Program-made: the position numbers and the translations under genes
Source: Candidatus Bathyarchaeota archaeon
Lineage (GTDB): Archaea; Thermoproteota; Bathyarchaeia; 40CM-2-53-6
Assembly: GCA_963835925.1 (NCBI GenBank)
Contig: CAWIHH010000004.1
Coordinates: 505,289-569,288 of the forward strand
Length of the DNA stretch: 64,000 bases
Reading direction: 5' to 3'
Notes under the pieces: generated by a model
What the model was told of the DNA's origin: nothing
Seen by the model: the letters and a program-made list of their open reading frames with translations, nothing else
Databases searched by the model: none
In this document: positions 1 to 40,742 of the stretch, one piece after another
Position numbering within the stretch: the stretch's first letter is position 1
Layout of the letters: the number at the start of each line of letters is the position of its first letter

Positions 1-1654
1 ACACCCCAGTAGTCATTGGGGTGCCCCATTGTTAAAACCGAAACTACACCGCGGTGATCCGCGAAGGGTAGGAGCTCTTTGAGTTCCGGTGTTTGGGGAG
101 GGAAAACAAACTGATACGGGGTGGTCCGAATTAGGGTGTAGGAGGAATCTGGGTGGGGGATCAGACCGTCCTTACTGGCTTTCCATGTAATATCCGCAGC
201 AGGGGTTGTCCATACTCCCGCATTCTGGTCACGGGTGTATTTTGATCCGGGCACATCGAATGCTCCTAGAATCATGAGCAACAAGTGCATACTCCAACCA
301 TTGGCTGATCCATGGACATGATTTGGTGGGCTTGAGAAGTAAGTCGTGGCAACAGGTCTCAATGGATACTCTTTTCCTGATACTACGATTTTGCTGCCAA
401 CCTGTGCTGCTTGTCCGAACTCATTTGCTATGCGGCGGATCGTTCCGGCTTGCACAGTGGTTATTGGTGCAGCCCATTCGGGTGTCATCGGCTTGACCGT
501 GTTCTTGAGCAGTTGCCATCCTGGATTTGTGTCCACACCGTCAACTGTGAACGTGCCCTCGATCGCGTAATCTTTGACCGTTGGGTCGTCGAAGGTTTTC
601 GCCTTATTGTCAACCGGGTCCCAGATTAGTGGCTTGTTTGTTGCTTTGTCTCGTGCGAAATAGCCATTGTCTGATCTTACGAGGTAGGGGCCGCTTGTCC
701 ACTTCTTTATGAAATCCACATCATAGATGCCCAACTCGTGAATGAGCACGTTGAGCATTGCAGATGAAAAAGCACCATCGGTGGAAGGAAGAATCGAAAT
801 CCACTCATCAACCGTGTTCACTCCACTGGACATCATCGGATTAATGTAGACGATTTTCATGCCTCGGTCATGGGCGTTCGTTACGTACTCTGCGAGTTGA
901 GTTGAGTCGTAAACGAAGGCTGGTTCAGATCCGAACATTATCAAGTAGTTGCAGTACTGCATGTCTGGATTGTCAGCAAATGCGCCGTGCGCCAATCTGT
1001 GCGAGTAGTGCATAACGTGGCCGCACCAGTTCATTCCCATCTCTACGGCGTAGCAACCAGCCGACATGGAGCCACTAAAGGCGCCAGAGTAAATTCCACT
1101 TTGGCTGTAGCTTAGCCGCGAGTAATCGCTAAACCACATGTTGCCATTATTGCCCTTTGCTCTGACCGTCTTCGCTTGGGCCGCTACGGTATTGTAGGCT
1201 TCGTCCCAGCTGATCTCGACCCATTTAGGATCTACACCTATGCCTTTCTGCGGATTCGTCCTCTTCAGCGGGGCCTTCACGGGTAGGGGTCGTAGACCCA
1301 CCAGAAGCCTGATTTCCCTTTTGAACAGAGCTTGCCCTTTGTTCTATTCGGATCTGGGTATCCCTCGATCTTGTCAATAACTCCGTCCACAACGTGAACG
1401 TTGATGTAATCGACTGTCGCGCACACTCTGCATTCGCTTTTGATCCATTGGTCTTGTTGAACTGCTGCGGGCGCTGCTCCCGCCACCAGCATCTTCAACG
1501 GATCCTTCAACGCGAAATCAGTGACCGCCGCCACTGTTCCAAAAGTTGCGGATAGCTTCAGAAAGTCCCTTCTAGAAATCGACGCTTTACCTCTCTCCGA
1601 ACTCGTACCTATTACTTCTTGTTTAGACAATTTCTTAATTCCTATTCCTATCAT
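1..1654 (-). pseudogene. CISM/DMSO-reductase-family molybdopterin catalytic subunit A1 (Psr/Phs-like, Tat-exported). Only the 5' ~550 codons are present; the 3' end lies left of the window. Frame is broken near 1280.
   Basis: ORF 1277-1654 encodes an SRRDFLKL twin-arginine signal and a CRVC..Y..KLC N-terminal cluster motif, then stops after VYDPYP. The adjacent frame continues PVKAPLKRTNPQKGIGVDPKWVEISWDEAYNT and stays in that frame to base 1 (..PELKELLPFADH..). It is colinear with paralogs 7291-10030 and 18659-21431. Confidence 0.85.
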
Positions 1655-1870
1655 GTTCGTTGCCCGAGCCCAACTCCATTAAGCCCTTCACAGCCTTCGC
1701 TCACGAAGGACTCACAGAGTTGCAACAAGCAACACACAGGAACTGGTGCGCTGAGAATAAGTTCCTTTGCCACATATTCTATTCACTAAGACTGCCGAGC
1801 AATAGGTCTACGTGTTGTAATTACCTCGCGATGTTACCATTCAGCAATATATATACCGCATATCGAAAAT
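1655..1870 (-). promoter_or_regulatory. Conserved upstream/leader region of A1, with a TATA-like box near 1846-1855, a CGATATG half-site at 1859-1865 and an inverted repeat AGGAAC-N17-GTTCCT at 1738-1766
   Basis: About 88% identical by eye to 10031-10245 upstream of A2, including identical runs of 44 and 24 nt. This is at least as conserved as the adjoining coding sequence. Confidence 0.5.
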
Positions 1871-1903
1871 CGTTTCAATTCTCTACAGATTTCAATTCTT
1901 GCA

Positions 1904-3223
1904 TCAGATAGCCACACGATATAGGTAGGTTGCGACGGCAAAGCCCAGAACGCAGAAGCCGACTTCAGTCATGGGGAAACTGGGCGAGCCAACGGACTGG
2001 AGAAACACAGAATACGCGAGAATAGACAACTGAAAAACTAGCACCACAGCAAGCACTACTATCGCAACGATACGCGGAATCTTATGCGCTATCTTCAGGG
2101 AATTCTGAGATAAGCGCAACTTCGAAAAGACATTTCTGCTTATGAGCAAGCGAACGATACCAAAGATAAGGAGAGCAGTCACGACCAGCGAACCGTAGAA
2201 TGTTATTGGGTTAATCGCTAGATCGTTTAAGGAGGTTATGGGGTCAACAAGATTTCCCGCACGGTAGCCCCACAGAGTAACAAGGACTATGTCTAGCATT
2301 GCCGTTATACCCACGGTTACCTGAAGAGCACGACCCGTAGCACCAAGACCGCGCTGCATATCATGAAAAGGAATCAGAGTGAAGACGAGAATGAAGGTGA
2401 ATGGAAGAAGAACAGTAACCAAAAAGACTTCCAATCCCGTCCGAAGCAGAGCGTAGATGCCGGTAAGATACCATTCTGGGATAATTATCATTGAAGGCTG
2501 ACCTGGAATGAACTTCGAGCCAAGTTCCACGGGCGCCAAGCCGCCCACAAGAAAGGATACACCTATCATTGCTAGAACGACAGGCGTGTCAAAGGCTAGC
2601 TTGCGTGGGAAATGGATGGCGAACAGAACCACCATTAGCCCCGGTAGAAGGACGATATGATATGCGTACATTCTCAGGATAGTATCACTGTACGAGAATC
2701 CCTGAAATCCATAGATCGCGAGATTAGGGCCAATGCTGGTGACAATTCCAGCGCCAATATCAAGGGCAAGCATAGCTCTCAAATTCATTATCAGAACATA
2801 ACCAGTGTAGGTCACGCCTACTGTAAGGACCCCAAGGACTATGCCAGTAACCCATAAGATCTCATCGTACAGCTTGTACTTACGAGTGAAGTAAAGATAG
2901 AAAAGATGCAGGATAGATAGGACTATCATGAAATTCGCGAGCCAATAATGGAGGTTCCTCACCTCAGAGCCGTATGGAATCAGATTACTGATCGCAGCTA
3001 CGCTGTCGTAACTTGTAGTCAATCCCGGGACATAGTAAAACATTAGCAGCACGCCGGTTACGCCGAGCAGTATGAAACAAATGAAAGCAAGCATGCCCAA
3101 GTAGGATAATGGATTGGCGGGTTCAAAGGAAAGAAACGCTGGCACGAGATATGTTCTAGCCAGACGCGACTTAATCCACTTGAGAACACCTTTTCCAGTA
3201 ATCTCTTCTTCTCTATCGCCCAT
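1904..3223 (-). CDS. Cytochrome b (Rieske/cyt b complex subunit, b6-type His spacing) with a long C-terminal membrane extension
   Basis: 439 aa and polytopic. The helix-B pair is RNLHYWLANFMIVLSILH (13 residues between the His). The helix-D pair is YHIVLLPGLMVVLFAIH (14 between). It overlaps the Rieske gene by 11 nt. Confidence 0.85.
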   Translation of the reverse strand: MGDREEEITGKGVLKWIKSRLARTYLVPAFLSFEPANPLSYLGMLAFICFILLGVTGVLLMFYYVPGLTTSYDSVAAISNLIPYGSEVRNLHYWLANFMIVLSILHLFYLYFTRKYKLYDEILWVTGIVLGVLTVGVTYTGYVLIMNLRAMLALDIGAGIVTSIGPNLAIYGFQGFSYSDTILRMYAYHIVLLPGLMVVLFAIHFPRKLAFDTPVVLAMIGVSFLVGGLAPVELGSKFIPGQPSMIIIPEWYLTGIYALLRTGLEVFLVTVLLPFTFILVFTLIPFHDMQRGLGATGRALQVTVGITAMLDIVLVTLWGYRAGNLVDPITSLNDLAINPITFYGSLVVTALLIFGIVRLLISRNVFSKLRLSQNSLKIAHKIPRIVAIVVLAVVLVFQLSILAYSVFLQSVGSPSFPMTEVGFCVLGFAVATYLYRVAI

Positions 3224-3707
3224 AGCCGATAACCCCTACTATGTCGTATGCATAGATGTCCCCGTTCTCGTCCTCATCCAGCTTTATGGTGGGCAGAGCT
3301 CTAGGTGCAGGGCCTGAGATATTGGTTCCATCGGTGGCATTGTACGCGCTTCCGTGACAGGGGCAGACGATTTGATTGGTCGTCGGATCATAGTTCACGA
3401 TACACTGCAAATGTGTGCAGACCCTATTGAAAGCGTACAAATTGGAGTGACGACCCATTCCGGCACCCTCGCGTCCTCTAATCAGCAGGTTCGTGTGGTA
3501 GGGGTGCGATTCAGTCGGCCACTGAAAGATTATGGCCGAGTATGGTTTCAGCTCGGCTATGTTTCCAATCTTCTTCCTCTCGATCTTAGGATTGCTGCCA
3601 TACGATAAGAAGCCTCCAGAAGGTACGAGGGAGGCGAGCGCTGACAATCCAGATACCGCGACAATGAGTTTAACGAAGTCTCTTCTAGCCAACTGCAACT
3701 CTGTCAC
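3213..3707 (-). CDS. Rieske [2Fe-2S] protein with a Tat-type signal
   Basis: RRDFVKL signal followed by a hydrophobic segment. Cluster boxes CTHLQC and CPCHGS are present. GTG start. Confidence 0.9.
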   Translation of the reverse strand: MTELQLARRDFVKLIVAVSGLSALASLVPSGGFLSYGSNPKIERKKIGNIAELKPYSAIIFQWPTESHPYHTNLLIRGREGAGMGRHSNLYAFNRVCTHLQCIVNYDPTTNQIVCPCHGSAYNATDGTNISGPAPRALPTIKLDEDENGDIYAYDIVGVIGYGR

Positions 3708-5276
3708 CTAAGTAAGACTCTCATGCGCAGGTCTTGAGAATCGATATACGTAGAACATTAGGATGCAGAAAATGAGGTACCCTATTGTAATCGCTAGAAC
3801 ACTTTGCTGAGCGGTCACCAATGGGTAAGTCTTCGATAGCGGTTCTAGATTTACGTAATTTTGATAGGCCCACGAATTCACAGTGTCCTGCGAAGCGGGG
3901 TCTATCGTCACTATACCTCCTCCTCTAAGAAAAGCTACGTCCATGAACTTCGCCAACACGCCCAACGGGGCGATTGAAGCAGCAATCGGAATGAGAATAT
4001 ATCGCCCCATCTTCATCTTTCTTGCAAGCAAGAATGCCACTGGAATGGCGACAACGAACGAAACAGGCGGCCATGGAACCCCACCATATTGTGCTGCGAG
4101 GTACCATTGGTTATGTGGCCCAACATAGAGCAGAATACCAATGCACGCCAAGGCAAAGAGGAGCACAGGTATTCGAAGCCTCATCTGGCCTTTCGAGTAT
4201 CGCCAGAGAGTAACCGAGATCAAGTAGCCTCCTAGAAGCACATATGCGGCCAGAACCCCCTGTGTTGGATAAGAAATGCTAGCGTCCAACGCTCCGAAGA
4301 CGGCGAGCGTCCACAGAACAAGACTGAGCAAGATCATCAATTGGATTACACGCCCCCGATTGTACTGCGGCCGACTATTCCTTGTGTCAAGATCGAGATA
4401 GTAAGCGACAGCAGCTGCTCCCATGAGCATCGCTCCAATCACACCGAGATGCCAGAGTGGGCTCACAGTTGAGGTTAAACTGGCGGCCAAGCCTCCACCA
4501 GTGCTTCCCATTAGGCCGAGCGCGATTGTCGGCGTGAGTGTGTGGAAGATTGCAGCGTTCCAATACCCTATGATAGGTATCGGCGCTCCAAAAAATAATC
4601 CAGTTTTGAAACACCACGTGGCCTGAAATCTTAACCGATGCCCTGCTTCACCGTCGACCACATTCCGGTAACGCAGCACGGCAACTGCTGAGAGGATAAG
4701 CGATGCGGTGAGAGAACCAGCCAGAAACATTTTCAAAGTCAGAGGCAACCAGGCTCGATTCACCATCAATGACAACTGCCCACCCCAACCCAGACTATCA
4801 GGCCTCAAAACGGCGATGACACCTTGGGGCAGTTGTGGTGCGAGCGTGTACGTATGAATTAGCATGAAGGCAAGAATGGCCCCCGCAGCGAATACACAGA
4901 CCAGAGAAGCAAGAAACAAATGCGCCCTCTTATTCTCATTAAGGGCGCTCCACGTCCTCGTGTAGAATGTAACCAGCAGTAGTTCAATGATAAACAGGCT
5001 GGTCATTAGGATTAAGGGCTTACTGAAGACAGCCGGGTCGAAGAAAGATGATAATGCTGTTGGCTGCATAATCGCGGAAAAAATCAATCCCATTGAGAAG
5101 ATGAGCGCAACCGCGAGGGATACTTGTCCCAGCTTCGCGAACAAGTAGCCGCACTCGTCGTATTCCCGCACTCGCGCGTAAACACCTATCACTTCACTCA
5201 ATGTCGCGAGGTATGCGGAACCCACGCCGACTATCAGGAAAAAGAAGAAGACCAGATATAGAACGGTATCAAGCAA
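3708..5276 (-). CDS. Polytopic membrane protein of unknown function, first gene of the Rieske/cyt b operon
   Basis: 522 aa with about 14 hydrophobic segments. Its TAG stop directly abuts the GTG start of the Rieske gene. I recognise no cofactor motif. Confidence 0.6.
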   Translation of the reverse strand: MLDTVLYLVFFFFLIVGVGSAYLATLSEVIGVYARVREYDECGYLFAKLGQVSLAVALIFSMGLIFSAIMQPTALSSFFDPAVFSKPLILMTSLFIIELLLVTFYTRTWSALNENKRAHLFLASLVCVFAAGAILAFMLIHTYTLAPQLPQGVIAVLRPDSLGWGGQLSLMVNRAWLPLTLKMFLAGSLTASLILSAVAVLRYRNVVDGEAGHRLRFQATWCFKTGLFFGAPIPIIGYWNAAIFHTLTPTIALGLMGSTGGGLAASLTSTVSPLWHLGVIGAMLMGAAAVAYYLDLDTRNSRPQYNRGRVIQLMILLSLVLWTLAVFGALDASISYPTQGVLAAYVLLGGYLISVTLWRYSKGQMRLRIPVLLFALACIGILLYVGPHNQWYLAAQYGGVPWPPVSFVVAIPVAFLLARKMKMGRYILIPIAASIAPLGVLAKFMDVAFLRGGGIVTIDPASQDTVNSWAYQNYVNLEPLSKTYPLVTAQQSVLAITIGYLIFCILMFYVYRFSRPAHESLT

Positions 5277-5582: not shown

Positions 5583-6678
5583 TTAGGTTTTCTTGGTTGC
5601 GGTTGTTAGTTTGGTTGTTGGGATGATTTTCGCAGCGACCACGTAGGCGGCGACTAGGATTACGAAGAAGACGCCTACCACCATGTAATCGAAGCCTTGT
5701 GGAATCATGGCTGGGAAATAGGTTTGAGGAGTCAAATCAGCCGCCTCAGGAACGCCCACAGAGACCACCAGGTACCGCACCAGCAGTCCGCCCGTTAATA
5801 GTAGGAGGCTGCTGATGGCTGCGAGCAACGGAAGCCTGCCACCATTCTTCACACCCAACCCTAGCAGAGCTATGGGAAGTATGAGACCTGCAACAATCAA
5901 ACCACCCCAGAACAACACCGAGAACGAACCCGACGTCAGGAGCATTCTAGATTCTAGTGCTGAAGGCACCATACCAGCCGTCACAGTGTAAAAGAACAAC
6001 ACAGCCAACACGAAGACACCAAGCGCAAGCAAAGGCGCAACCAAACTTCTGATCATACCAGTTACCTGTTCATTCGCTTCACCAACACTACGCGCCTGGT
6101 AGACTCCGAGAACCATCACCGTCGCGGCAGTGCCCGTCATCAAAGCCACACCAATGAACAGCAACGGAAGCAACCCATTCTCCCAGAATGGGACATGGGC
6201 AAGACTCATGGCAACGCCTGGGTAGGTCATGACGCCAAGCGCTAGCACTGCACCGATGATCCCCAGCGCCCTTCGAAGCACAGTAGCCTTCTCTAATAGT
6301 TTGAACGGCCAAATCCACAACCCAATGTGTACCACTGACACGACCAAGAATGCTGTGATGAACACTGAACCAATCGCAATTAGGGAACCGAAGTTGCCGA
6401 AGACAGACATGAACCGTTCCGGACGCCCAAGATCCAACATCAGAAACAGCACGCCCCCAATCACCAGAGGAGCGCTAAGGAAGACACCGACCTTCGACGT
6501 GATCCTATTCCTCTCACCAAGATAGTCAGCTAAGACGCCTACAATGTACGCTCCGGCTCCAGCTCCGGCTAGGAAGAAGTCCCAGATCAGCAACCAACCC
6601 CACTCAGTCTGAACAGGAATCATGTTCTACAACTCCCCCTTGAAACCCACATAGTACACTGAAGGCCTCGTGCCAAGC
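5573..6678. repeat. Copy 1 of a ~1.1-kb apparently identical segmental duplication (C2 gene plus the 3' tail of B2)
   Basis: Same sequence as 11374-12479 at a constant offset of 5801 nt. The 346-aa proteins and the antisense shadow ORFs are identical. Confidence 0.85.
5583..6623 (-). CDS. NrfD/PsrC-type membrane anchor subunit C2
   Basis: 346 aa and multi-TM, with N-terminal WGWLLIWDFFLAGAGAGAY as in NrfD-family quinol-interacting anchors. It lies directly downstream of A2-B2. Confidence 0.85.
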   Translation of the reverse strand: MIPVQTEWGWLLIWDFFLAGAGAGAYIVGVLADYLGERNRITSKVGVFLSAPLVIGGVLFLMLDLGRPERFMSVFGNFGSLIAIGSVFITAFLVVSVVHIGLWIWPFKLLEKATVLRRALGIIGAVLALGVMTYPGVAMSLAHVPFWENGLLPLLFIGVALMTGTAATVMVLGVYQARSVGEANEQVTGMIRSLVAPLLALGVFVLAVLFFYTVTAGMVPSALESRMLLTSGSFSVLFWGGLIVAGLILPIALLGLGVKNGGRLPLLAAISSLLLLTGGLLVRYLVVSVGVPEAADLTPQTYFPAMIPQGFDYMVVGVFFVILVAAYVVAAKIIPTTKLTTATKKT

Positions 6679-7280
6679 GCCGGCTTCAACGGCATCGCCC
6701 GCAGTTTGATGATCTCCTGTGAGATTTGACTATTCGGATCATCCAGATCACCGAAAACCCGCGCACGTCCTAGGCAAGTGTTCACGCAGGATGGGGTCGC
6801 GTCCCGGTCCACACCGGGTTTAAGGCCGTTCTTCACGCCCGCATCAACACGTTGAACACAGAACGTACACTTCTCCACGACGCCTACTTGGTGTTGCGCG
6901 TATGCTCGGTTCTCCCAAGCCGTTAGGCCTGATGGATAATAGCCCTCAATGCTAGCCATGAAGTGACGTGCTGCGTATGGACATGCTTGCATGCAATACT
7001 TGCATCCGATGCACTTGTCATAGTCCACCAGCACAATCCCGTCAGCCCGCTTGTGACTCGCACCTGTTGGGCAGACCGCGACGCATGGCGCATTCTCACA
7101 GTGCATACACAACGTCGGAATATAGAACCTCCCGGTGTTGGGGTACTTTCCGGTCTCACCTTCAATTGCTGCAGCCCAAAATATGCCTTTAGTAGTCTTG
7201 TTCTCAGCTTTGCAGGCGGATGTGCACCCATAGCATCCGATGCAACGGGACAGTTTAATCAACATGCCATAATGTGTCAT
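6627..7280 (-). CDS. Four-cluster [4Fe-4S] ferredoxin subunit B2 (PsrB/DmsB-like)
   Basis: Cys groups are CIGCYGCTSAC, CMHCENAPCVAVCP, CIGCKYCMQACP and CTFC..CVNTC. Confidence 0.9.
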   Translation of the reverse strand: MTHYGMLIKLSRCIGCYGCTSACKAENKTTKGIFWAAAIEGETGKYPNTGRFYIPTLCMHCENAPCVAVCPTGASHKRADGIVLVDYDKCIGCKYCMQACPYAARHFMASIEGYYPSGLTAWENRAYAQHQVGVVEKCTFCVQRVDAGVKNGLKPGVDRDATPSCVNTCLGRARVFGDLDDPNSQISQEIIKLRAMPLKPALGTRPSVYYVGFKGEL

Positions 7281-10030: not shown

Positions 10031-10245
10031 GTTTGTTGCCCGCTCTAAACTCCATTAAGCCCTCCACAGCCTTCACTCAAGACGGCTTCACAGAGCTGCA
10101 ACAAGCAACACAAAGGAACGGACTCGCAGAGAATAAGTTCCTTTGCCACATATTCTATTCACTAAGACTGCCCAACAATAGGTCTACGTGTTGTAATTAC
10201 ACCGCGATGTTACCGTTCAGTAACATATATACCGCATCAACAACG
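10031..10245 (-). promoter_or_regulatory. Conserved upstream/leader region of A2, paralogous to 1655-1870, with a perfect 9-bp inverted repeat CAAAGGAAC-N17-GTTCCTTTG
   Basis: Alignment by eye with the A1 upstream region. A TATATAT box lies about 195 nt upstream of the ATG. Confidence 0.5.
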
Positions 10246-12424: not shown

Positions 12425-12426
12425 GT

Positions 12427-28277: not shown

Positions 28278-28340
28278 ATTTCTCTAATTTCCTATTCAGA
28301 TTTGTTTGTTGCGTGACCGCAACTCGGCCTGCTCCTTCAG
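28278..28340 (-). promoter_or_regulatory. 5' leader of A5: hairpin GTTGCG-gtca-CGCAAC followed by AAACAAATCTGAATAGGAAATTAGAGAAAT before the ATG
   Basis: Near-identical to the A6 leader at 32162-32225. Related blocks precede A1, A2, A4 and A8. Confidence 0.5.
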
Positions 28341-32161: not shown

Positions 32162-32225
32162 TTTCTTAATTCCTATTCAGCTTGCTTGTTGCGCTATCGC
32201 AACTCGGTCTGTTCTACATAGCCGA
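32162..32225 (-). promoter_or_regulatory. 5' leader of A6: hairpin GTTGCG-atag-CGCAAC followed by AAGCAAGCTGAATAGGAATTAAGAAA before the ATG
   Basis: See 28278-28340. An in-frame TGA six codons upstream of the ATG shows this block is non-coding here. Confidence 0.5.
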
Positions 32226-32444: not shown

Positions 32445-33545
32445 TTATGTTTTCTTTGCTGTGGTTAGTTTTGTTGTAGGTATGATTCTTGCTGTGACGA
32501 AGTATGCTGCGACGAGTATCAGGAAGAAAACACCCACGACCGCGTAGTCGAAGGCTCCTGGCCCATAGGATTCGATGAATCTGGAGACGAACGGGGCCGG
32601 GTAGGCTTGGAAGTAAACCTCCTGACCCGAAGTGTAAGGTAGAGGCGCAACGGAGATACCTACTGAAACCACCAAATACCGCAACACCAATCCACCCGTC
32701 AGGAAGAGGAAGCTGCTGACCGCTGCGAGCAACGGAAGCGTCCCCTTCCCTCTAATCCCCACTCCTAACAGCACTATGGGCAGCAGTAAACCTACCACGA
32801 TCAGGCCGCCCCAGAACAACGCTGAGAACGGTCCAGACGTGAGAAGCATAGTGGATTCCTGAGCTGTTGGCGCCAAGGTTCCCGTAAACACAGTGTAGAA
32901 TAAGACTGCGACCAGCACGAACGCTCCCAGCCCAATCACTGCAACCCCCAACGCCTTAATCGAACCCACCGCCCTCTCCTTCGCATCACCCACACTCCGA
33001 CTGTAATAGACCGACAAAACCATCAAATTCGCTGCGACCCCGGACAATGTGGCAACCCCGATGAAAAGCAATGGAAGCAGACTCGTCTCCCAGAAAGAGA
33101 CATGCGTAAGACTCATCGCCACACCCGGATAAATCATCACGCCTAGAGCGAGCACTGCTCCGATCACGCCTAGTACTCTGCGAGCCACCGTGGCCTTCTC
33201 TAATAGTTTGAAGGGCCAAATCCATAATCCGATGTGTATGACTGAGACGATTAGGAATGCTGTGATGAACATTGAACCGAAAGTTATGAGCGAAGTGGCG
33301 CTGGTGAACACGTACATGAACCGTTCAGGATGCCCCAGATCAAACATAAGGAATATCACGCCACCAATCACCAGTGGAGCGCTAAGGAATACCCCGATCT
33401 TCGCCGCAACCCTATTCTCATCGCCTAGGTATTCCGCTATGATGCCTGAGAGGTATGCGCCTGCGCCTGTGCCTGCTAGGAAGAAGTCCCAGATCAGCAA
33501 CCAACCCCAACTAGTCTGCGTGAGAACCACCATCCCCCGGGTCAC
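32445..33545 (-). CDS. NrfD/PsrC-type membrane anchor subunit C7
   Basis: 366 aa and colinear with C2, with an inserted loop near the C-terminus. It overlaps B7 by 4 nt. Confidence 0.85.
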   Translation of the reverse strand: MTRGMVVLTQTSWGWLLIWDFFLAGTGAGAYLSGIIAEYLGDENRVAAKIGVFLSAPLVIGGVIFLMFDLGHPERFMYVFTSATSLITFGSMFITAFLIVSVIHIGLWIWPFKLLEKATVARRVLGVIGAVLALGVMIYPGVAMSLTHVSFWETSLLPLLFIGVATLSGVAANLMVLSVYYSRSVGDAKERAVGSIKALGVAVIGLGAFVLVAVLFYTVFTGTLAPTAQESTMLLTSGPFSALFWGGLIVVGLLLPIVLLGVGIRGKGTLPLLAAVSSFLFLTGGLVLRYLVVSVGISVAPLPYTSGQEVYFQAYPAPFVSRFIESYGPGAFDYAVVGVFFLILVAAYFVTARIIPTTKLTTAKKT

Positions 33546-34204
33546 CAGCCCTCCGTCAACCCAACGTAGTACACTTTCGGCTTCGTATCCAGTTCAGGAT
33601 GTATTGGTCTAGCATGCTTCAACGCTATCTGCTTCGAAACCTCGCTGTTCGGATCGTCAAGGTTACCGAAGACACGTGCGCCTGAGATGCAGGTAATCAC
33701 GCAAGCAGGCGTAGCATCCCTATCTACGCCTGGCACTAGCCCCTTGCTTACGGCTGGATCGATCCTGTGGGAGCAGAAGGTACACTTCTCCACAACCCCA
33801 ACCTGATGCTTCTGGTACGCGTAAAGCTCGTAGGGGTTTAACCCCTTACCAGGGAAGTACCCTCCAATCTCATTCATGAAAGTCCTCGCACCGTACGGGC
33901 ATGCTTGAATGCAGTACTTGCAACCAATGCACCTAGCGTAGTCAACCATCACAATCCCATCAGCCCGCTTATAGCTTGCACCCGTAGGGCAGACCGAAAC
34001 GCAAGGCGTATTCTCACAGTGCATACACAACAGCGGTGTATAGTTGATTTTCGCAGTGGGATAAGTTCCAACCTCTTCAGTCAAAACCTTAGACCAGAAC
34101 ACACCACGAGGCGTACCATTCTCAGCCTTACAAGCCACAGCGCAGGCGTGACAGCCCACGCATAGGTCTCGGTCAATCAACATACCATACCTAGTCATGC
34201 TCAA
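33542..34204 (-). CDS. Four-cluster [4Fe-4S] ferredoxin subunit B7
   Basis: Cys groups are CVGCHACAVAC, CMHCENTPCVSVCP, CIGCKYCIQACP and CTFC..CVITC. Confidence 0.9.
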   Translation of the reverse strand: MSMTRYGMLIDRDLCVGCHACAVACKAENGTPRGVFWSKVLTEEVGTYPTAKINYTPLLCMHCENTPCVSVCPTGASYKRADGIVMVDYARCIGCKYCIQACPYGARTFMNEIGGYFPGKGLNPYELYAYQKHQVGVVEKCTFCSHRIDPAVSKGLVPGVDRDATPACVITCISGARVFGNLDDPNSEVSKQIALKHARPIHPELDTKPKVYYVGLTEGW

Positions 34205-34208
34205 TCAC

Positions 34209-37004
34209 CTACCCCTTGTACACCTTCACCTTAGCACGGCCTTCCATGCCACCGCACACCGGGTTCATGACGGTCTCGTCGAATGCTACTAGATCGTTTA
34301 TGTTTGAGCCGCTCCTTGCTTGCGGGTTGTAGTCGACTGATCTTGATCCGTAGCATCCGCCCATGCCGATAACTTCTGGATGCACAGCCTCCGATGTCCT
34401 TACTTGGCCTCTGGTCTTTCCGTGTTGGGATTCTACCCAGACCCAGTCACCGTCCTTGAAACCCTTCGCAGTAGCAGTTGCACGGTTCATCCACACGTTC
34501 ATTGGGTACGGGTCGAAGAGCTCCGTTAGTTCGGCGATCCATGGGTTGTCCATGACCGTGGCCATTGTGGCCAGCATCGTCTTGTAGTGAATTGCCCACA
34601 TGTCAAACTCGGCAGGAGCTTGGAAGTTTGGTTCTGCAAACCACTGGGGTAGCGGCCTGTAGTGGCTAAACACGAAATCGTTCGAGGGCTTCAGTTGGGC
34701 TCCGGCTTTGTCGAGTTCGCTTTTAAGCTGCTTTCCAGCCCAGACGAGATATTCGACGTAAAGAGGGAGTCGCGTGTTCGGCCATCGGGTTATTCCATAA
34801 TACTGGTCAACCGTAGGAGCTGTTGCAGGTTGGTCGATTGACCAACCATTCTTGGAGAACCAATCAAGACCAAATTGGTCTCCGTGGGCTGATTTGAGTG
34901 CCAGGTCGATGATTTCAGAGTAGCTATACTTGCGATTGAGGTCGATGCTATACGGATTCTTAATGCCGAATTTAGATGCGAGCGTGCCGTTGAGCCCCTT
35001 TGCACCGTAGAGTATCCCAACTTTTTCGGCCAAGTCCATCAACACGTCAGGTACTTCTCGGGTGTTGTAGACGGTTTTTACAACTGGCTGCCTGAGGACA
35101 TCGGCCGCGACGAAGTATGGTTTGGCTGGGTCACCGGGGAAGACACCACGGTTGTAGTGGCCTAGGTCGGCTATGCGATGTCGTTCCAAGTACGAGCTTT
35201 CGGGCAACACAATGTCTGCCATTTCAGTGGGCTCGTCAAAATTGTACGAGAAGGTAACGAAGAATGGTACCTTCGCTATTGCTTCCGCCACGGAATCGCC
35301 CTTACCCATGCCGTTTATCGCGTTGAGGGCACAATGGAGTACCATTTCGACCTTATACGGCACTGGATATTGATCGGGCGTTGCTATGACATTGTACACT
35401 AGGGGGGCCGTCTTGTACGCAAGAGGGTACATGTCCGAAAGGTCAGCCACTTGCGGAGGATACTTGACAGATGCGTATTTGCTGGTGGGTTGTCCGGTGC
35501 CGGGTAGCACCACTCCGTCAGCTGGATCCGGAGGAGCATTTGGTACACCATCAGCTTTGGAGCCTCCCGGTACATCTATGTTGCCGAGGAGACAGTTCAC
35601 CATATACATAGCAAGCCGAGCGTCAAGTCCGCCCAGATGAACCTCACCGCCTTTACCAGTGTCAACAGCAGCCGGTCTGTACGGAAAGGTTACTCCGTTG
35701 ATTGTGATTGTACTTCCTATCTGAGCTGCGTTTACGAGTTCGTTCGTTATCCTCCTGATCGTATCTGTTGGCACAGTAGTGATGTTCGAAGCCCATTCAG
35801 GCGTGTAATCCTTGACTTGAGTTTTCAGGAGTTGAAAAGCTGGCTGACAGGTCACGCCATCAACATTGTACGTGCCATCAAGCGCATAGTCCTTGATCGT
35901 CTTATCGTCGAAGGACTTGGCCTTTTGGTCAACAGGATCCCATACGTATGGCTTCCCGAGCCTCTGATTCAATCGACCAGGGTCTGCGACGAGCGGATCC
36001 TTACCCCTAACGTAAAGCCCGTCAGCACCAATCAGGTAAGGTCCATTTGTTCTTTTCTTTATGAATCCCATGTCAAAGGTGTTAAGCTCATAGAGCATAG
36101 TGTGTACGATAGCCAGCAAAAAGGCCCCATCAGTGCTCGGTCTAACTGGAATCCATTCATCGGCCTTCCTTACTGAAGGAGCCATTACAGCATCGACTGC
36201 AACGCTCTTGAAGCCTCTCTCGCGGGCCTCCGTGAGGAGTAGGTTGCTGTAAGGCATCGCCTTGTTTGAAAGATACATTCCGCCGCCGAATGTGACGGTG
36301 TAGTTTGAGTATTTTACATTCGGCCCCGAGGTGAATGATCCATTGAACCAAGAACTCGTTGTGTGAAGCGTGCAACCACTGCAGAATATGCCACCGCCTG
36401 ATGCGGGAATTCCAGTGTTGGGAGTGCCGTATACCACGCCGAAATTGCCGGTAAGTATCATGTCCCCGCCTCTGTGACCTGCACCAAGTATGGCAAGCTT
36501 TCTGGGATCATCTTGTCGAATCTTGCTCATACGATCAGCCACTGTACTAATGGCTTCGTCCCAGCTTATCTCAACCCACTTGGGGTCGACCCCTCTGCCC
36601 TTCACCGGATTAGTCCTCTTCAAGGGACTCTTCACACGATAAAGATTATACAACGACATTATTCCAGAATTCGACCGCCCACAGATTCTACCTTTACTGT
36701 CAGGACTTGTTGGATCTCCCTCGATCTTCACTGCGACTCCGTTCACCACATGGACGTGCATTGCACATTGCGCATCGCACATGAAGCAACTCGAAGGAAT
36801 CCATTCATCTTGGACAGCCTGAGTCTGCTGAGCAAACCCCTTTTCAATCAGAGAGGTCAGCTGATTGCCGATTGTCAGCTCACCGAGCGTGGCTACCGAG
36901 GCAATGGTTCCAGATAGTTTCAGAAAGTCTCGTCTTGAAAGTGAATTATTCTTCTCTGAGTGGTTCTTAGTTTCATAGGTTACTACTTCTTGTTCGGACA
37001 TCAT
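34209..37004 (-). CDS. CISM catalytic subunit A7 (Psr/Phs-like), intact, with a canonical CxxCxxxC..C N-terminal cluster and an SRRDFLKL signal
   Basis: 931 aa with CFMCDAQC ... GRICGRS and VDPKWVEISWDEAIST. Confidence 0.9.
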   Translation of the reverse strand: MMSEQEVVTYETKNHSEKNNSLSRRDFLKLSGTIASVATLGELTIGNQLTSLIEKGFAQQTQAVQDEWIPSSCFMCDAQCAMHVHVVNGVAVKIEGDPTSPDSKGRICGRSNSGIMSLYNLYRVKSPLKRTNPVKGRGVDPKWVEISWDEAISTVADRMSKIRQDDPRKLAILGAGHRGGDMILTGNFGVVYGTPNTGIPASGGGIFCSGCTLHTTSSWFNGSFTSGPNVKYSNYTVTFGGGMYLSNKAMPYSNLLLTEARERGFKSVAVDAVMAPSVRKADEWIPVRPSTDGAFLLAIVHTMLYELNTFDMGFIKKRTNGPYLIGADGLYVRGKDPLVADPGRLNQRLGKPYVWDPVDQKAKSFDDKTIKDYALDGTYNVDGVTCQPAFQLLKTQVKDYTPEWASNITTVPTDTIRRITNELVNAAQIGSTITINGVTFPYRPAAVDTGKGGEVHLGGLDARLAMYMVNCLLGNIDVPGGSKADGVPNAPPDPADGVVLPGTGQPTSKYASVKYPPQVADLSDMYPLAYKTAPLVYNVIATPDQYPVPYKVEMVLHCALNAINGMGKGDSVAEAIAKVPFFVTFSYNFDEPTEMADIVLPESSYLERHRIADLGHYNRGVFPGDPAKPYFVAADVLRQPVVKTVYNTREVPDVLMDLAEKVGILYGAKGLNGTLASKFGIKNPYSIDLNRKYSYSEIIDLALKSAHGDQFGLDWFSKNGWSIDQPATAPTVDQYYGITRWPNTRLPLYVEYLVWAGKQLKSELDKAGAQLKPSNDFVFSHYRPLPQWFAEPNFQAPAEFDMWAIHYKTMLATMATVMDNPWIAELTELFDPYPMNVWMNRATATAKGFKDGDWVWVESQHGKTRGQVRTSEAVHPEVIGMGGCYGSRSVDYNPQARSGSNINDLVAFDETVMNPVCGGMEGRAKVKVYKG

Positions 37005-37501: not shown

Positions 37502-38086
37502 CTAAGCGGTTGTGGTTGTTGGCGGTAGTCCTGCGTAGTAGACTTTTGGAGCAGCTCCGAGTTCTGGGGAGAGTACTGTTGCTTTCATGTTGGCCACGGT
37601 TGATGCGAGTGCAGTGTCGTCTCCGATTGTTATGGCCTGGGTGGGGCATGCGTCGACGCATGCGGGCTGTAAGCCTTGGTCGAGTCTGTGGGCGCACAGG
37701 GTGCATTTCTGCGGGATCTGAAGTTGATCGTTCCAGAAGATCTTGCCGTACGGGCACGCGTCCACGATTTGCTTCTGGCCCTTGCTCTTAGCTGGGTCGA
37801 GGATGACGATGCCGTCAGGGCGTTTGTACGCTGCGCCGTTCGTGGCTGCTGTGACGCATGGGGGCTTATCACACAGCATACAGGACTCTGGAATGTATCG
37901 GACTTTGACATTGACGCCTTTACCCCATTCTTTCTCTGCGACCGAGATCCAGAACTGCCCCGAGTCGGGCTGGGCGAGGGAGTATGGCGGCCAATCGTTT
38001 TCTACGAACTGGTCTTTGCATGTGGCTGTGCAGACGTTGCATGCGATGCATCTAGTAGTATCGATTACGAGTGCGTATCGTGTCAT
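37502..38086 (-). CDS. Three-cluster ferredoxin subunit B8 (BthL-like)
   Basis: 194 aa with the same Cys pattern as B5. Confidence 0.85.
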   Translation of the reverse strand: MTRYALVIDTTRCIACNVCTATCKDQFVENDWPPYSLAQPDSGQFWISVAEKEWGKGVNVKVRYIPESCMLCDKPPCVTAATNGAAYKRPDGIVILDPAKSKGQKQIVDACPYGKIFWNDQLQIPQKCTLCAHRLDQGLQPACVDACPTQAITIGDDTALASTVANMKATVLSPELGAAPKVYYAGLPPTTTTA

Positions 38087-38090
38087 TGCT

Positions 38091-40742
38091 CTATTTCACC
38101 CACTTCTCCACTTGGACTAGGGCAGGGGTGTATTTCTCGCCGTAGCAATGCGGTGACGCAGCACCCCCGATTAGGACGTTTATGTTGCCGCCTGTATCTA
38201 TGGACTTGAGGTTTCCAGGCTCGGCTCGTTTGCTCCATGAGCCCTCAGCCACCCAAATCACTCCGGGCATTAGTCTTTCGGTGATGTGGACGTAGCAGAG
38301 GATTTGGTCTCTGTCGTTGAAAATTCTAATAATATCCTTCTCTTTGATTCCTCGCGGTCCGGAGTCTGCAGCGTTCATCCACACCGGCTCGTATCCCTGG
38401 TACTTGTAAATGTCCGCCAACCATGATACGTTATTCCACTGTCCGTGGAAGCGAAACTTCTGGTGAGCGCTAACCGCCAACAATGGGTAGTTCTTCACGC
38501 GCGGGGCGTCTCTGCCATCGTCTGGGTCAGGGAAGTATTTTGGTACGGTTCCAATTGCGTTGCTGTTCTCACCATAGTAGTCAGCTAGCATCTTCGAGTA
38601 GAACTCTATCTTGCCCGATGGTGTGCTTACTCCAGTGGTGGGCGTTATCGAGTCTCCTGACTTCTGGTAGTACCATCGGAACGCTGTTTGTGGCTGGTAG
38701 TCTTTGGGCAATTCGAAGATGTAGTAACCCTTTGCCTTGAACGCCTCCCAAGAAAGCGGCACAGTGCCTGTGTTGTACATCTTCTCCAGCCACATGTCCT
38801 CAGTATTGCCTTCAGTGAACTTATCCGCGATGCCGAACCGGTCTGCGAGAGCCGCATAAACGTCGTAATCAACTTTCGATTCGTAGAGCGGTTCGATGCA
38901 CTTGCGTTGGTAGATTACAACTCTTGTGCTAATCCCAGTCGCTATTCGCCCTGTATAACCAGCTTCTGTGACGTCACTTCGTTCAAGAAGCGTGCAGGCG
39001 GGTAGTACGATGTCGGCGTACATTACTTCTGGTTCATTCCATGGCGTTTGGGCTACTATGAACTCGATTGCCGGGCTCTTGTACGCGCCTGCTGCCCCTC
39101 TGGCTGTTCCCTGTTGGGGCGTTCCGTTGAACTTACTGCCGCCAACTCTGTACACCATGAGGATTGTGGAGTTCCCTGGCATGGGGTAACTGTAGTCTTG
39201 GAGATACGTTGTCGGTGGCGATCCGAGACCAGTGCCGCCGTGCCATTTGAATGGCAGTGAGCTCGGATCCATGGTGAGCCGTGCCCAGTCTAGGGATGGT
39301 ACTTGCTGCTTGATCGGATTGGGTGGAACCACTTTGCAGGGGGGTGACATAGCAAAGGCATTGCGTGACGGCCCATACTGTCGCGGATCGTTTGGTGCGC
39401 CAGCGCCGCCTCCCGGTGAGCCTCCTCCGCCCCAAATGTTTACGCCGGGTTTACCTAGACCTTGCATCGCTTGGAGGGCTACCATCGCCCGCGCCCATTC
39501 GTGGCCATAGGATCCTCGATTTGCGCCAGAGGCGTAGCACATTAGCATGGTGGGTTTTGATGCCCACTCCCTGGCTAGGGTGCTTATGGTTTGGGCATCT
39601 ATGCCTGTGATCTTTGAGGCCCAGTCGGGGGTTCTATCGATCGCTCCGTCCACCCCGGGTGCCTTGCCTAGAACATAGTCGCTGAACTTGTCAAACCCGA
39701 TTGAATGCGTGGCAACGTACTGCTTGTCGTAGGTACCGTCTTTGATCCAAACGTTCGCTATAGCCAACGCAAGAGCCGTGTCACTGCCAGGACTGATTGG
39801 GATCCATTGATCGCAGTAAACGGCAGCCGTGTCTGTGTAGATTGGATTGATTGAGATCATCCTGATGCCCAACTCTCTCATCCAAAATCGGAAGTAACTT
39901 GGGTCATGTCCAGAGTGCATCTCTTCGACAGATACTGGATCTGTGCCCCACCACACGGCCAACTTACTGTTCTGCATCGTATCTTGGAGCAAGTCGAATT
40001 GGTCGCCTAACCCCATTTGCCAGTAGTATCCCCAGATGAATGGGCTCCCGTACATGTATCCCATCCAGCTAGCGGTAGGAGCGATTACGGATGTCTGACC
40101 GCCGAAAAAGTTGAGCAACCTATTGAATCCATTCGTATAGTGGAGTGTGCCCCATTCCCAGTGGGCACCCTCTCCTCCACTGAAAGCCGAGGCTCCGTAC
40201 TTTTGTTTTATTCGCTGCATCTCTTTCGCGATAGTGTCAAGCGCTTCATCCCAAGTGATGCGCACGAATTCACCCTTTCCTCTGTTGGAGACGTCACTTG
40301 TTCCTCCGGGTTGGAAGCCTACACGCTTCATTGGATATCTCAAACGGTCGGGTGAGTAGACCTTTCTTCGATGAGCCAGCGCGATTTGAGATGGTGGAAA
40401 CCTCGTTGGTGCAGTGTAAGACTTGCCTCCGGCGGTAATGGTCCACGGTTTGGCTTCGCTCTCACTATAGCGGAACGATTCGTACCGGCGGGCCACACCA
40501 TTCGAGACGTGTACGAGGATAGGCCCCCCAGTTGTGCATTGCTGAAATACCTGTTCCTCGACGAGCGGTACAGCCTGCGTTGCGGTTTGTGTTACCGTGG
40601 TTATGGGTCGTAGGAGTTGGTTTGTCTCGTAACCTGCTCCTATCCCTACAGCCGCGACCGCAGCCAATGCTCCCGTCCATTTGAGCATTGAACGCCTACT
40701 AATTTTGTTCTCGGAAATTGATTCTTTTTTCGTTTCGGACAA
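38091..40742 (-). CDS. Molybdopterin catalytic subunit A8 (paralog of A5, intact, Tat signal SRRSMLKW, TTG start)
   Basis: 883 aa with YPMKRVGFQPGGTSDVSNRGKGEFVRITWDEALD and no N-terminal Cys cluster. Confidence 0.85.
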   Translation of the reverse strand: MSETKKESISENKISRRSMLKWTGALAAVAAVGIGAGYETNQLLRPITTVTQTATQAVPLVEEQVFQQCTTGGPILVHVSNGVARRYESFRYSESEAKPWTITAGGKSYTAPTRFPPSQIALAHRRKVYSPDRLRYPMKRVGFQPGGTSDVSNRGKGEFVRITWDEALDTIAKEMQRIKQKYGASAFSGGEGAHWEWGTLHYTNGFNRLLNFFGGQTSVIAPTASWMGYMYGSPFIWGYYWQMGLGDQFDLLQDTMQNSKLAVWWGTDPVSVEEMHSGHDPSYFRFWMRELGIRMISINPIYTDTAAVYCDQWIPISPGSDTALALAIANVWIKDGTYDKQYVATHSIGFDKFSDYVLGKAPGVDGAIDRTPDWASKITGIDAQTISTLAREWASKPTMLMCYASGANRGSYGHEWARAMVALQAMQGLGKPGVNIWGGGGSPGGGAGAPNDPRQYGPSRNAFAMSPPCKVVPPNPIKQQVPSLDWARLTMDPSSLPFKWHGGTGLGSPPTTYLQDYSYPMPGNSTILMVYRVGGSKFNGTPQQGTARGAAGAYKSPAIEFIVAQTPWNEPEVMYADIVLPACTLLERSDVTEAGYTGRIATGISTRVVIYQRKCIEPLYESKVDYDVYAALADRFGIADKFTEGNTEDMWLEKMYNTGTVPLSWEAFKAKGYYIFELPKDYQPQTAFRWYYQKSGDSITPTTGVSTPSGKIEFYSKMLADYYGENSNAIGTVPKYFPDPDDGRDAPRVKNYPLLAVSAHQKFRFHGQWNNVSWLADIYKYQGYEPVWMNAADSGPRGIKEKDIIRIFNDRDQILCYVHITERLMPGVIWVAEGSWSKRAEPGNLKSIDTGGNINVLIGGAASPHCYGEKYTPALVQVEKWVK

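Follow-up and report, generated by a model that had tools for sequence, protein, structure and literature searches.

A dense array of predicted exported molybdoenzyme genes with a recurrent 5′ leader in a Bathyarchaeia contig

We analysed 64,000 nucleotides of the genome of Candidatus Bathyarchaeota archaeon (contig CAWIHH010000004.1, positions 505,289 to 569,288; the whole stretch is called the window below), with a focus on an array of molybdopterin oxidoreductase genes. Within positions 1-40742, Pfam searches found eight loci for catalytic (A) subunits, all on the minus strand and each with PF00384 and/or PF01568. Domains absent from one fragment of a split A gene were present in its other fragment. 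By PF00384 and PF01568, the A loci are members of the dimethyl sulfoxide (DMSO) reductase superfamily (MopB), with its molybdenum or tungsten bis(pyranopterin guanine dinucleotide) cofactor (Mo/W-bisPGD). Along the minus strand (5′ to 3′), the genes are arranged as A8-B8, A7-B7-C7, A6-B6, A5-B5, AMMECR1 (on the opposite strand), a B12-binding radical SAM gene, a gene for a small Thr-rich membrane protein, A4-B4, a gene for a CxxCxxCC protein, a TorD-like gene (on the opposite strand), A3-B3-C3, a second TorD-like gene, A2-B2-C2, an operon encoding a 522-amino-acid membrane protein, a Rieske protein and a cytochrome b, and finally A1, which runs off the window edge. A T-rich stretch terminates each operon. 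The initial annotation of this DNA had listed eight co-directional minus-strand sets in the order A2-B2-C2 to A8-B8, and both the domains at the eight loci and the gene order agree with it. It had also placed two TorD chaperones and a Rieske/cytochrome b module among the sets. Both are present according to Pfam, but one TorD gene (16221-16961) lies on the plus strand.

The A subunits fall into two lineages, as had been proposed from the translations. In the first, A1, A2 and A4 share 64-70% protein identity, A3 is about 40% identical to these and A7 33-38%. In the second, A5 and A8 are 58% identical and A6 reaches about 30%. Across the two lineages, identity is just 21-28%. Lineage I comprises the partial A1 (1..1654), recognised by PF04879 and a twin-arginine translocation (TAT) signal in an open reading frame of 125 amino acids; tblastn searches with A2 and A4 traced its continuation in frame -3 between 1289 and 3. 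It further comprises A2 (7291..10030), A3 (13168..15830) and A4 (18659..21431), identified by Pfam and encoding 913, 888 and 924 amino acids after repair of a frameshift (see below), and the intact A7 (34209..37004), which is supported by Pfam, alignments to Protein Data Bank (PDB) structures and an AlphaFold2 model. Lineage II consists of A5 (25642..28277; PF21423, PF00384 and PF01568) and A8 (38091..40742; intact, PF21423, a match to PDB 4v4c_A, and a TAT signal followed by a Thr/Gln-rich linker), both AhtL-like, and of the putatively Ser-type A6 (29561..32161), which is intact and carries Pfam domains and a TAT signal. A twin-arginine motif (S/DRRxFLK or SRRSxLK) was read in all eight translations, which confirms the TAT signal claimed for every A subunit.

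The ferredoxin (B) genes follow their A genes on the same strand. B2 (6627..7280; Fer4_11 and related families), B3 (12510..13163; Pfam), B4 (17994..18648; Pfam, with a frameshift and with no anchor gene after it) and B7 (33542..34204) encode four-cluster proteins, with four complete Cys groups each in the translations. The best NCBIfam models for B7 were DsrO, ArrB and TtrB, all below their cut-offs. B5 (25050..25637; Fer4_11), with a Thr-rich C-terminal tail, and B8 (37502..38086) are three-cluster ferredoxins that are 80% identical to each other. B6 (28801..29550; Fer4_11) is a DmsB-like ferredoxin of 249 amino acids that scored 127 bits against DMSO_dmsB, with a cut-off of 214. Genes for NrfD-type anchors (C) were found at 5583..6623 (C2; PF03916), 11384..12424 (C3) and 32445..33545 (C7; PF03916), likewise on the minus strand. 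Sets 2, 3 and 7 thus read A-B-NrfD, set 4 is without an anchor and set 1 is incomplete at the window edge. The TorD/NarJ-type maturation chaperones are encoded at 10294..11028 on the minus strand (PF02613, E=2.5e-25) and at 16221..16961 on the plus strand (PF02613, E=1.7e-25). Sets 2, 3 and 7 together with the two PF02613 chaperones fit the A-B-C architecture of complex iron-sulfur molybdoenzymes.

Lineage I had been described as five A subunits with an N-terminal Cys cluster that pair with four-cluster B subunits and NrfD anchors. The region of this cluster (FS0) is present in A1-A4 and A7, but the canonical motif CxxCxxxC...C occurs only in A7. The third Cys is replaced by Asp (CxxCxxxD) in A1 (~1420-1440), A3 (~15660-15680) and A4 (~21190-21210), and A2 reads CxxCxxxDC (~9800-9820). 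These substitutions suggest that the cluster is ligated by Asp or is of the 3Fe type. The pairing with four-cluster B subunits holds for B2, B3, B4 and B7, but an anchor accompanies only three of the five sets. Judged by the FS0 region, the predicted Cys ligand, the four-cluster B subunits and the NrfD anchors, we tentatively assign lineage I to the Psr/Arr clade.

To which member of this clade lineage I comes closest was assessed with A7. By sequence, its closest solved relatives are ArrA (6cz7, E=5e-40) and PsrA (2vpw, E=1e-38), with mainly residues 23-321 aligned. The Cys that ligates the metal in both proteins is matched by Cys208 of A7, which is invariant in a family alignment of 16 sequences. 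For the AlphaFold2 model of A7 (mean predicted local distance difference test score, pLDDT, 76; predicted template-modelling score, pTM, 0.80), Foldseek returned ArrA 6cz7 first (TM 0.64/0.72, 21% identity), followed by PcrA and EbdA, with PsrA ninth. Residues ~322-388 form a beta-rich insert of about 70 residues, which is confidently modelled, is skipped in the ArrA and PsrA alignments and has residues conserved across the A7 family alignment. No A subunit reached a curated NCBIfam equivalog cut-off. A7 scored 258 bits for PhsA (cut-off 694), 160 for ArrA (1600), 147 for QrcB (440) and 36 for TtrA (1750), and the best model for A2 was PhsA as well (190 bits, cut-off 694). Of the label "Psr/Phs-like" given to this lineage, the resemblance therefore stands, but membership does not, since neither A7 nor A2 reaches the PhsA cut-off.

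These data bear on the possibility that lineage I consists of ordinary Psr/Phs or Arr reductases and that the island is a sulfur- and arsenic-respiration locus. The subunits are of the PsrABC type, with a Cys ligand and a TAT signal, and the best NCBIfam model (PhsA, for A7 and A2) and the best PDB matches (ArrA and PsrA) point in this direction. However, the scores lie far below the equivalog cut-offs, the sequence matches are largely limited to the first third of A7 and its insert is absent from ArrA and PsrA. In addition, Arg165, Tyr166, His189, Ser190 and Lys198 of ArrA, which we take to be its arsenate-binding residues, are replaced in the A7 alignment by Gly, His, Pro, Ala and Thr. The wider family also argues against it. 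When the A7-family alignment was compared with GTDB, at least 594 loci were confirmed, mostly bacterial and with at most 44% identity among the matches listed; a search of GTDB with A7-specific peptides found no relative. One homologue from the family scan, in Azoarcus sp. Aa7 (L066, 8592-15936), is 32% identical to A7, has no TAT signal, is predicted to be cytoplasmic and sits between genes for an acyl-CoA dehydrogenase and an FAD-binding oxidoreductase (PF00890). Because of this context, the wider lineage I family does not appear to be confined to sulfur and arsenic oxyanions, and organic substrates of the coenzyme A ester type are suggested for part of it. We therefore consider it unlikely that lineage I is made up of ordinary sulfur or arsenic reductases.

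PsrABC of Thermus thermophilus (PDB 2VPW) and PhsABC resemble lineage I in their layout of a TAT-exported Mo-bisPGD A subunit with an FS0 region and a Cys ligand (aligned in A7), a four-cluster B subunit and an NrfD quinol anchor, and PsrB can be aligned with B7 and also with B8. Identity to these systems is only about 20%, however. The A subunits of the array are 150-170 residues longer and have the beta-rich insert, Asp stands in three of their five FS0 motifs and A4-B4 is anchorless. ArrAB of Shewanella sp. ANA-3 (PDB 6CZ7) is the best sequence and fold match of A7 with an aligned Cys ligand, whereas the presumed arsenate-binding residues are not kept and sets 2, 3 and 7 have an NrfD anchor.

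The A subunits of lineage II had been described as having no N-terminal cluster and as pairing with three-cluster B subunits and no anchor, and this was corroborated: the cysteines missing from B5 and B8 are those that the beta subunit of pyrogallol transhydroxylase, with its three clusters, has lost as well. A8 matches the large subunit of pyrogallol-phloroglucinol transhydroxylase (4v4c_A) over its full length (E=7e-128, residues 68-881) and B8 matches 4v4c_B (E=4.8e-44), with the same cysteines missing. PF21423, the AhtL-like first domain, was found in A5 and A8 and was not detected in A6. The position of the ligand Ser175 is kept, within ASW in A8 and VSW in A5, and A8 also keeps His144 and Trp176 of 4v4c. 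A5 and A8 are thus, by these sequence features, predicted to be TAT-exported Ser-type enzymes with three-cluster B subunits.

Since A5-B5 and A8-B8 match 4v4c over both subunits and have the Ser ligand, the three-cluster beta subunit, the AhtL-like domain and, in A8, His144, they could be true pyrogallol-phloroglucinol transhydroxylases that ferment plant polyphenols. The annotation of homologues in Chloroflexota metagenome-assembled genomes (MAGs) as transhydroxylases has precedent (PMC3971608). The active site does not fit, however. In A8, Asp174 is replaced by Ala, Tyr404 by Gly and Arg153 by Thr, and A5 has Val at the position of Asp174. His144, Asp174 and Tyr404 are reportedly the catalytic and substrate-binding residues according to the structure paper of 2004, with a numbering that agrees with the 4v4c sequence. 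The clade paralogs P0143, P0164 and P0166 do retain the Asp-Ser-Trp motif. Because two of the three catalytic residues of transhydroxylase are absent, A5 and A8 would act on something other than its substrates. Moreover, the TAT signals contrast with the cytoplasmic location of the Pelobacter enzyme (PMC10100899) and of the downstream metabolism of phloroglucinol. The C-terminal beta-barrel domain of 4v4c_B is also missing in B5 and B8, which end in Thr-rich tails. We considered that the barrel might be hidden downstream of B5 and B8, but no reading frame there encodes one. In sister contigs it is present as CarboxypepD_reg. Judging by this active-site test, A5 and A8 are related to the hydroxyl-transferring branch, yet are not transhydroxylases, and we regard it as very unlikely that they catalyse this reaction. 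Relative to AthL/BthL (PgtL) of Pelobacter acidigallici (PDB 4V4C) and to RhLS, the lack of FS0, the residues Ser175, His144 and Trp176 and a beta subunit with three [4Fe-4S] clusters are shared. The TAT motif with its Thr/Gln linker in A5 and A8, the replaced residues, the absent barrel and the archaeal origin are the differences. That motifs alone do not identify the substrates, as stated at the outset, holds for both lineages: no NCBIfam cut-off was reached, and the residues of ArrA and transhydroxylase are mostly not kept.

The N-termini of lineage II have features of their own. A5, A6 and A8 have SRRSxLKW TAT motifs (PF10518), and in the archaeal clade the first ~60 residues, composed of the signal, a hydrophobic stretch and the Thr/Gln-rich linker, show much stronger conservation than the remaining sequence. 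The bacterial homologues P0166 and P0154 are without this N-terminus. These N-termini and the Thr-rich tails of the B subunits may represent a signal-anchor and glycosylated linkers. Thr-rich tails were seen at the C-termini of B5, B6 and B8. A6, which has no FS0 cluster, is nearest to DorA/TorA (PDB 1dms, E=3.6e-47), followed by 4v4c (E=1e-37), and its metal-ligand position is ambiguous in the DorA alignment. For the NCBIfam model dmsA_ynfE (cut-off 778), A8 scored 416 bits and A6 339 bits, both below the cut-off. A6-B6 resembles DorA/TorA/DmsA in that A6 has a TAT signal and no FS0 and in that B6 is nearest to DmsB. However, a ferredoxin subunit is missing from DorA and TorA, and DmsA comes with FS0 and a DmsC anchor; in both respects A6-B6 differs.

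Sequence identity is distributed unevenly along the array. In a self-comparison of the window, DNA identity among the sets was mostly 65-75%, but for C2 and C3 the value rises to 99.9% along 1108 bp (5571-6678 and 11372-12479), with 100% identity in protein, beside A2 and A3 that are only 42% identical. B2 and B4 are 95% identical (synonymous divergence, dS, ~0.1), compared to 64% for A2 and A4, and B2 with the C-terminus of A2 matches B4 with the C-terminus of A4 at 87% DNA identity over 1248 bp. The same was observed between genomes. C7 is ~100% identical over ~800 nucleotides to its orthologue in L002, a related locus (32700-33500 of the window and 12740-13816 of L002), and in sliding comparisons with L002 B7 reaches 93-94% and A7 60-87% DNA identity, with flanks that do not align. 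The catalytic genes next to the near-identical anchors are only 42-75% identical. As anchors and ferredoxins are near-identical while the neighbouring catalytic genes diverge, these patterns suggest that anchor and electron-transfer modules were homogenised by gene conversion or recombination while the catalytic subunits diverged.

Alternatively, the near-identity of C2 and C3 and of C7 and its L002 orthologue could be a polishing artefact from cross-mapped reads. In its broadest form, this explanation holds that the whole array is an assembly artefact, a spurious tandem series produced when repeats or segments of mixed strains were joined or polished, and the two near-identical stretches of 1.1 kb and ~800 nucleotides are what would be expected from cross-mapped polishing. 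Against this, identity is 65-87% in the other paralog pairs, whose flanks are unique, long reads easily span a repeat of 1.1 kb, and three independent contigs, one of them assembled from short reads, carry the same kind of array with local synteny. Because their DNA identity is mostly 65-75%, the paralog sets are not collapsed repeats, and the possibility, raised together with the initial annotation, that repeated segments had been misassembled did not materialise. An artefactual array is thus very unlikely. For the near-identical stretches themselves, homogenisation of the modules is the reading we prefer, with a polishing artefact as a possible alternative.

When the upstream regions of the A genes were compared, ~160 nucleotides upstream of A1, A2, A5, A6 and A8 could be aligned with each other. 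The same leader precedes A genes of both lineages in related loci, namely L001 (4400-4515, 9533-9647 and 14687-14799), L002 (2310-2424, 9102-9213 and 19668-19770), L163 (9895-10002), L164 (1000-1102 and 9898-10003) and L128 (1005-1113). Within the window it thus precedes genes of lineages that differ in more than 70% of their protein sequence, and four other contigs of the clade have it too. The leader has a total length of ~110 nucleotides and consists of an imperfect hairpin of ~90 nucleotides, AACAAAC and then AAUAGGAAUUA, which is likely the Shine-Dalgarno region, followed by the start codon. Further upstream, a GTATGTAGCATAGT..TTTATC box is conserved ~25 nucleotides before the transcribed part and ~150 nucleotides upstream of the starts of A5, A8, A1 and A2 (for instance at 28410-28437), and also in L001 and L002. 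This box is probably a promoter with a B recognition element and TATA box, to judge from its sequence and position, and perhaps includes a regulator site.

A covariance model (R1) was built on six copies of the leader. In the window, R1 detected the leaders of A1 (1628..1741; 45.7 bits, E=1.6e-6; minimum free energy z-score -5.6), A2 (10010..10110; 36.1 bits, E=1.6e-4), A5 (28278..28392; 50.9 bits, E=1.3e-7; z-score -3.1) and A8 (40741..40855; 46.2 bits, E=1.3e-6), all on the minus strand. Upstream of A6 only a weak, partial match to the 3′ half was obtained (32159..32208, minus strand; 18.4 bits, E=0.77), and nhmmer gave E=1e-16 over 32160-32247. Altogether R1 found 15 copies, all 15 directly upstream of A genes, and had no match in 837 kb of 89 other loci, bacterial homologue loci included. 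Scans of metagenomes and of GTDB, in which the matches listed were almost all bacterial homologues of at most 44% identity, contributed one further copy (L128). The leader also bears on the start sites. The N-termini of A1 and A2 that result from an ATG start ("MIGIGIKKL") are the translated tail of the leader, and the true starts are therefore probably TTG at 1630 and 10012.

In the alignment fitted to the model, which by its construction leans towards structure, 82% of the cells pair, compared to 34-48% when the partners were slid, and double-sided changes occur in 16 of the 32 pairs, compared to 5-9. None of 500 shuffles reached the covariation score of the leader. On the other hand, RNAalifold predicted no structure on a plain MAFFT alignment of 14 leaders, and a structure was obtained only from the subset of six sequences. 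Covariation support for the structure is thus good but not conclusive. G-U cells outnumber A-C cells (73 versus 21) and pairing is higher in the sense than in the antisense direction (82% versus 70%), which favours an RNA on the mRNA strand. A3, A4 and A7 are without the common leader. An identical 14-nucleotide sequence, GCGATATGACTGGT, part of a palindrome, lies upstream of A4 (21531-21544) and A7 (37149-37162) on the minus strand; at least two matches with up to two mismatches were obtained in 7 of 100 shuffles.

The common leader would imply shared post-transcriptional control of the genes it precedes. A more far-reaching idea is that it is an undescribed archaeal cis-regulatory RNA which gates translation of the molybdoenzymes, either riboswitch-like, sensing for example the Mo/W pterin cofactor or redox state, or as the site of a regulator. 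We think this specific role quite unlikely. Like the molybdenum cofactor (Moco) riboswitch RF01055, the leader is a structured 5′ element before genes of molybdenum-cofactor enzymes. It differs in being archaeal and in consisting of a single long imperfect hairpin with an A-rich tail, and a search of positions 1-42500 against Rfam gave no match at the gathering score or at E<=1, RF01055 included.

Between A2-B2-C2 and A1 lies an operon with a cytochrome b, a Rieske protein and an orphan membrane protein, all on the minus strand. The cytochrome b (1904..3223; 439 amino acids) has N- and C-terminal domains (PF00033, PF13631 and PF00032) and two His pairs in helices of the translation; with 129 bits and a cut-off of 290 it is not a member of ExtP. 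The Rieske [2Fe-2S] protein (3213..3707; PF00355) has an RR motif of its own (ARRDFVK) and is not a member of the arsenite oxidase small subunit family (68 bits, cut-off 96). By its co-encoded domains, the pair of Rieske protein and di-haem cytochrome b is a bc-type complex. The polytopic membrane protein of 522 amino acids (3708..5276) had no match in Pfam or NCBIfam and only 8 clusters among 1.84 billion representatives. Its AlphaFold2 model is all-helical and of low confidence (pLDDT 54). A homologue of 552 amino acids, also without a Pfam match, follows a Psr-like operon in L001. Because anchorless A-B pairs need a route to the quinone pool, the Rieske/cytochrome b/orphan operon is, by analogy, the obvious candidate to link these sets to it. 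Haloarchaeal NarGH is TAT-exported and would be linked to the quinone pool by NarB (Rieske) and NarC (cytochrome b), and NarG is of the Asp-ligated type II. NarGH-NarBC resembles the array in that genes of an exported archaeal enzyme lie beside Rieske and cytochrome b genes. In the window, however, the latter form a separate operon with an orphan membrane protein.

The initial annotation does not mention that five of the eight A genes, and B4, are split in the assembly. A1, A2, A3, A4, A5 and B4 have one frameshift each, at about 1282, 7957, 15147, 19751, 26044 and 18162, respectively, and only A6, A7 and A8 are intact as assembled. The frameshift in A1 was placed near 1281-1283. Repair at a single position restored full-length proteins of 878-924 amino acids with no internal stop, or, for A1, 551 amino acids up to the window edge. 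Three or four of the six shifts lie in homopolymers, with A3 in a G4 run, B4 in a C4 run and A5 in an A5 run. All lesions are indels, one per gene, with no nonsense codon, and the frame stays open for up to 682 codons past the shift. The ratio of non-synonymous to synonymous substitution rates (dN/dS) among the paralogs is 0.14-0.20 downstream of the shifts, compared to 0.19 upstream. A gene for a multi-PAS histidine kinase on the plus strand is also split by one frameshift (~47165, between open reading frames 44402-47257 and 47061-47966), and thus the indels reach beyond the molybdoenzyme genes. Two sister long-read contigs (269 and 286 kb, one ENA metagenome assembly) have a broken radical SAM gene and orthologues of the intact A7 that are interrupted at other sites. 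The short-read contig of L164, in turn, has an uninterrupted radical SAM gene and three uninterrupted A genes. From these observations, the six frameshifts are most likely indel errors of long-read assembly and not gene death.

One coincidence among the shift sites deserves description. The shift in A1 (~1281-1283) and that in the A7 orthologue of L001 (~9995-10003) fall on one and the same codon boundary, between Arg and Val of a conserved YxPYR-VK motif, in different paralogs on different contigs. By our estimate, this would happen by chance with a probability of a few percent. A basecalling error specific to the k-mer or context may account for it; it could also be coincidence or a recoding site. 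A third paralog, P0028, is called from a Met just after the YxPYR-VK motif. Programmed frameshifting at this site is unlikely, as a -1 slip re-pairs well only in A1. Selenocysteine was rejected as a cause of the split genes, as the reading frame changes at each break and is not interrupted by an in-frame TGA.

Taken together, we consider it probable that positions 1-40742 represent a functional island of exported Mo/W enzymes with two architectures, which grew by duplication and module homogenisation and is partly under the control of a common leader. The array would have grown by duplication, with catalytic subunits that diverged and with anchor and ferredoxin genes that were homogenised. By analogy with characterised relatives, the lineage I A subunits would be folded with a TorD-type chaperone and exported by TAT, probably carrying the signal-less four-cluster B subunit along, and would dock on the NrfD subunit, which would exchange electrons with the quinone pool. 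Electrons might then flow from quinol via NrfD, four [4Fe-4S] clusters, FS0 and Mo/W to a substrate on the outside of the membrane; the reverse direction is conceivable as well. The A-B pairs of lineage II would be exported by TAT as well and possibly be tethered via an uncleaved signal and the Thr-rich linker.

Several points weigh against this scenario. The direction of electron flow, the hitch-hiking of B, the signal-anchor and the role of the Rieske/cytochrome b operon are drawn from analogy, and the window gives no indication that quinones or the pterin cofactor are synthesised by this organism. Furthermore, the frameshifts stand in the deposited sequence, those of A2, A4 and the histidine kinase lie outside homopolymers, A1 and the L001 gene share their shift site, and a truncated A-gene remnant in the short-read L164 indicates that real decay occurs in the family. 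The array could accordingly be largely decaying, with five A genes and B4 as true pseudogenes and only sets 6, 7 and 8 functional. Redundant paralogs are expected to decay, and the lesions are found not only in the assembly but also in public gene calls, where P0125 is a 768-amino-acid N-terminal fragment of A5. On the other side, true pseudogenes are hard to reconcile with a single indel per gene without stops or deletions, with a dN/dS that is equally low past the lesions, with a shift in an unrelated kinase, with sister long-read contigs that are shifted elsewhere in genes intact here and with promoters and leaders that are still conserved before A1, A2 and A5. Decay of most of the array is therefore improbable in our view, and a functional island remains the preferred explanation.

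Other genes of the window surround or interrupt the sets. The AMMECR1-family gene (24283..24918, plus strand; PF01871) and the gene for the B12-binding radical SAM protein (22369..24138, minus strand; PF02310 and PF04055) directly follow a transhydroxylase-like A-B pair in three genomes (22369-24918 in the window, 6104-8518 in L002 and 13592-16021 in L164). The local order of AhtL-like A-B, AMMECR1 on the opposite strand and B12-radical SAM is the same in L002 and L164, and this synteny hints at a functional link, for example in maturation. The CxxCxxCC protein (16954..17697, minus strand; PF03692) is of the YkgJ type and putatively binds Zn or Fe. Beyond the array, a gene for Cas1 (401 amino acids) is located at 42988-44193 on the plus strand and a weak phage-integrase-family gene 7 kb beyond it (51313-52485, plus strand). 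No CRISPR array was found in the window, near Cas1 or elsewhere, and this Cas1 may be a Cas1-solo, a casposon-like remnant or part of another mobile element at the edge of the island. tRNA genes were not found in the window.

We also looked at the distribution of the A genes. On the same contig of 1.36 Mb (1,355,405 bp), to which A7, the A5 fragment P0125 and the aminotransferase that flanks the array also map, at least seven further A-type proteins are encoded outside the window. Three of these belong to lineage I and four to lineage II, and the contig thus has at least 15 A genes. In L001, four sets occupy 21 kb together with an IS110 transposase, the homologue of the orphan membrane protein and a TorD gene. 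L001 and L163 lie on sister contig_65496, which also encodes Hjc, two RadA/Rad51 proteins and a family-B DNA polymerase. For this aminotransferase (P0241), the only named close homologue is in a Candidatus Bathyarchaeota MAG (62% identity). This homologue and the genes of the sister contig speak for an archaeal origin, probably within Bathyarchaeia. The paralog density, which had been called unusual, is so for archaea, with at least 15 A genes on 1.36 Mb, but it is not unique, given the arrays of L001, L002 and L164. The initial annotation had also asked whether close relatives carry the same array with characterised substrates. The sister contigs do carry comparable arrays, but none with a characterised substrate.

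Many DMSO reductase paralogs in a single anaerobe are also found in Desulfitobacterium hafniense and Eggerthella lenta. MopB paralogs number 53-57 genes in Desulfitobacterium and 34 in Eggerthella (PMC3306737). However, these are bacteria with genomes of 3.6-5.7 Mb, compared to at least 15 genes on 1.36 Mb here, eight of them in a co-directional block of 41 kb. These bacterial paralogs include the catechol dehydroxylases (PMC7028382), which cluster with acetylene hydratase and with neither lineage of the array. The array is thus real and dense in paralogs, yet similar arrays exist in relatives and the superfamily is well known.

These findings do not overturn what is known of the superfamily, and their value lies in specific enzymes, a leader RNA and an orphan membrane partner as testable candidates. 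The array is a natural case of modular evolution, in which diversifying catalytic subunits appear to be combined with homogenised electron-transfer modules. The transhydroxylase/resorcinol-hydroxylase-like family was bacterial-only in a survey of RhL/PgtL from 2023, with none of 285 sequences archaeal (PMC10100899), and is represented here by a predicted exported archaeal radiation with an altered active site. If the leader is indeed a regulatory RNA, then together with exported transhydroxylase-like enzymes it would point to the extracellular transformation of phenolic or other organic substrates by Bathyarchaeia of soils and sediments. Few uncultured archaea are as abundant in soils and sediments as Bathyarchaeia, whose energy metabolism is still debated. 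At least 15 genes for predicted exported, quinone-linked Mo/W enzymes per 1.36 Mb suggest a respiratory or extracellular redox versatility that is not usually attributed to these archaea.

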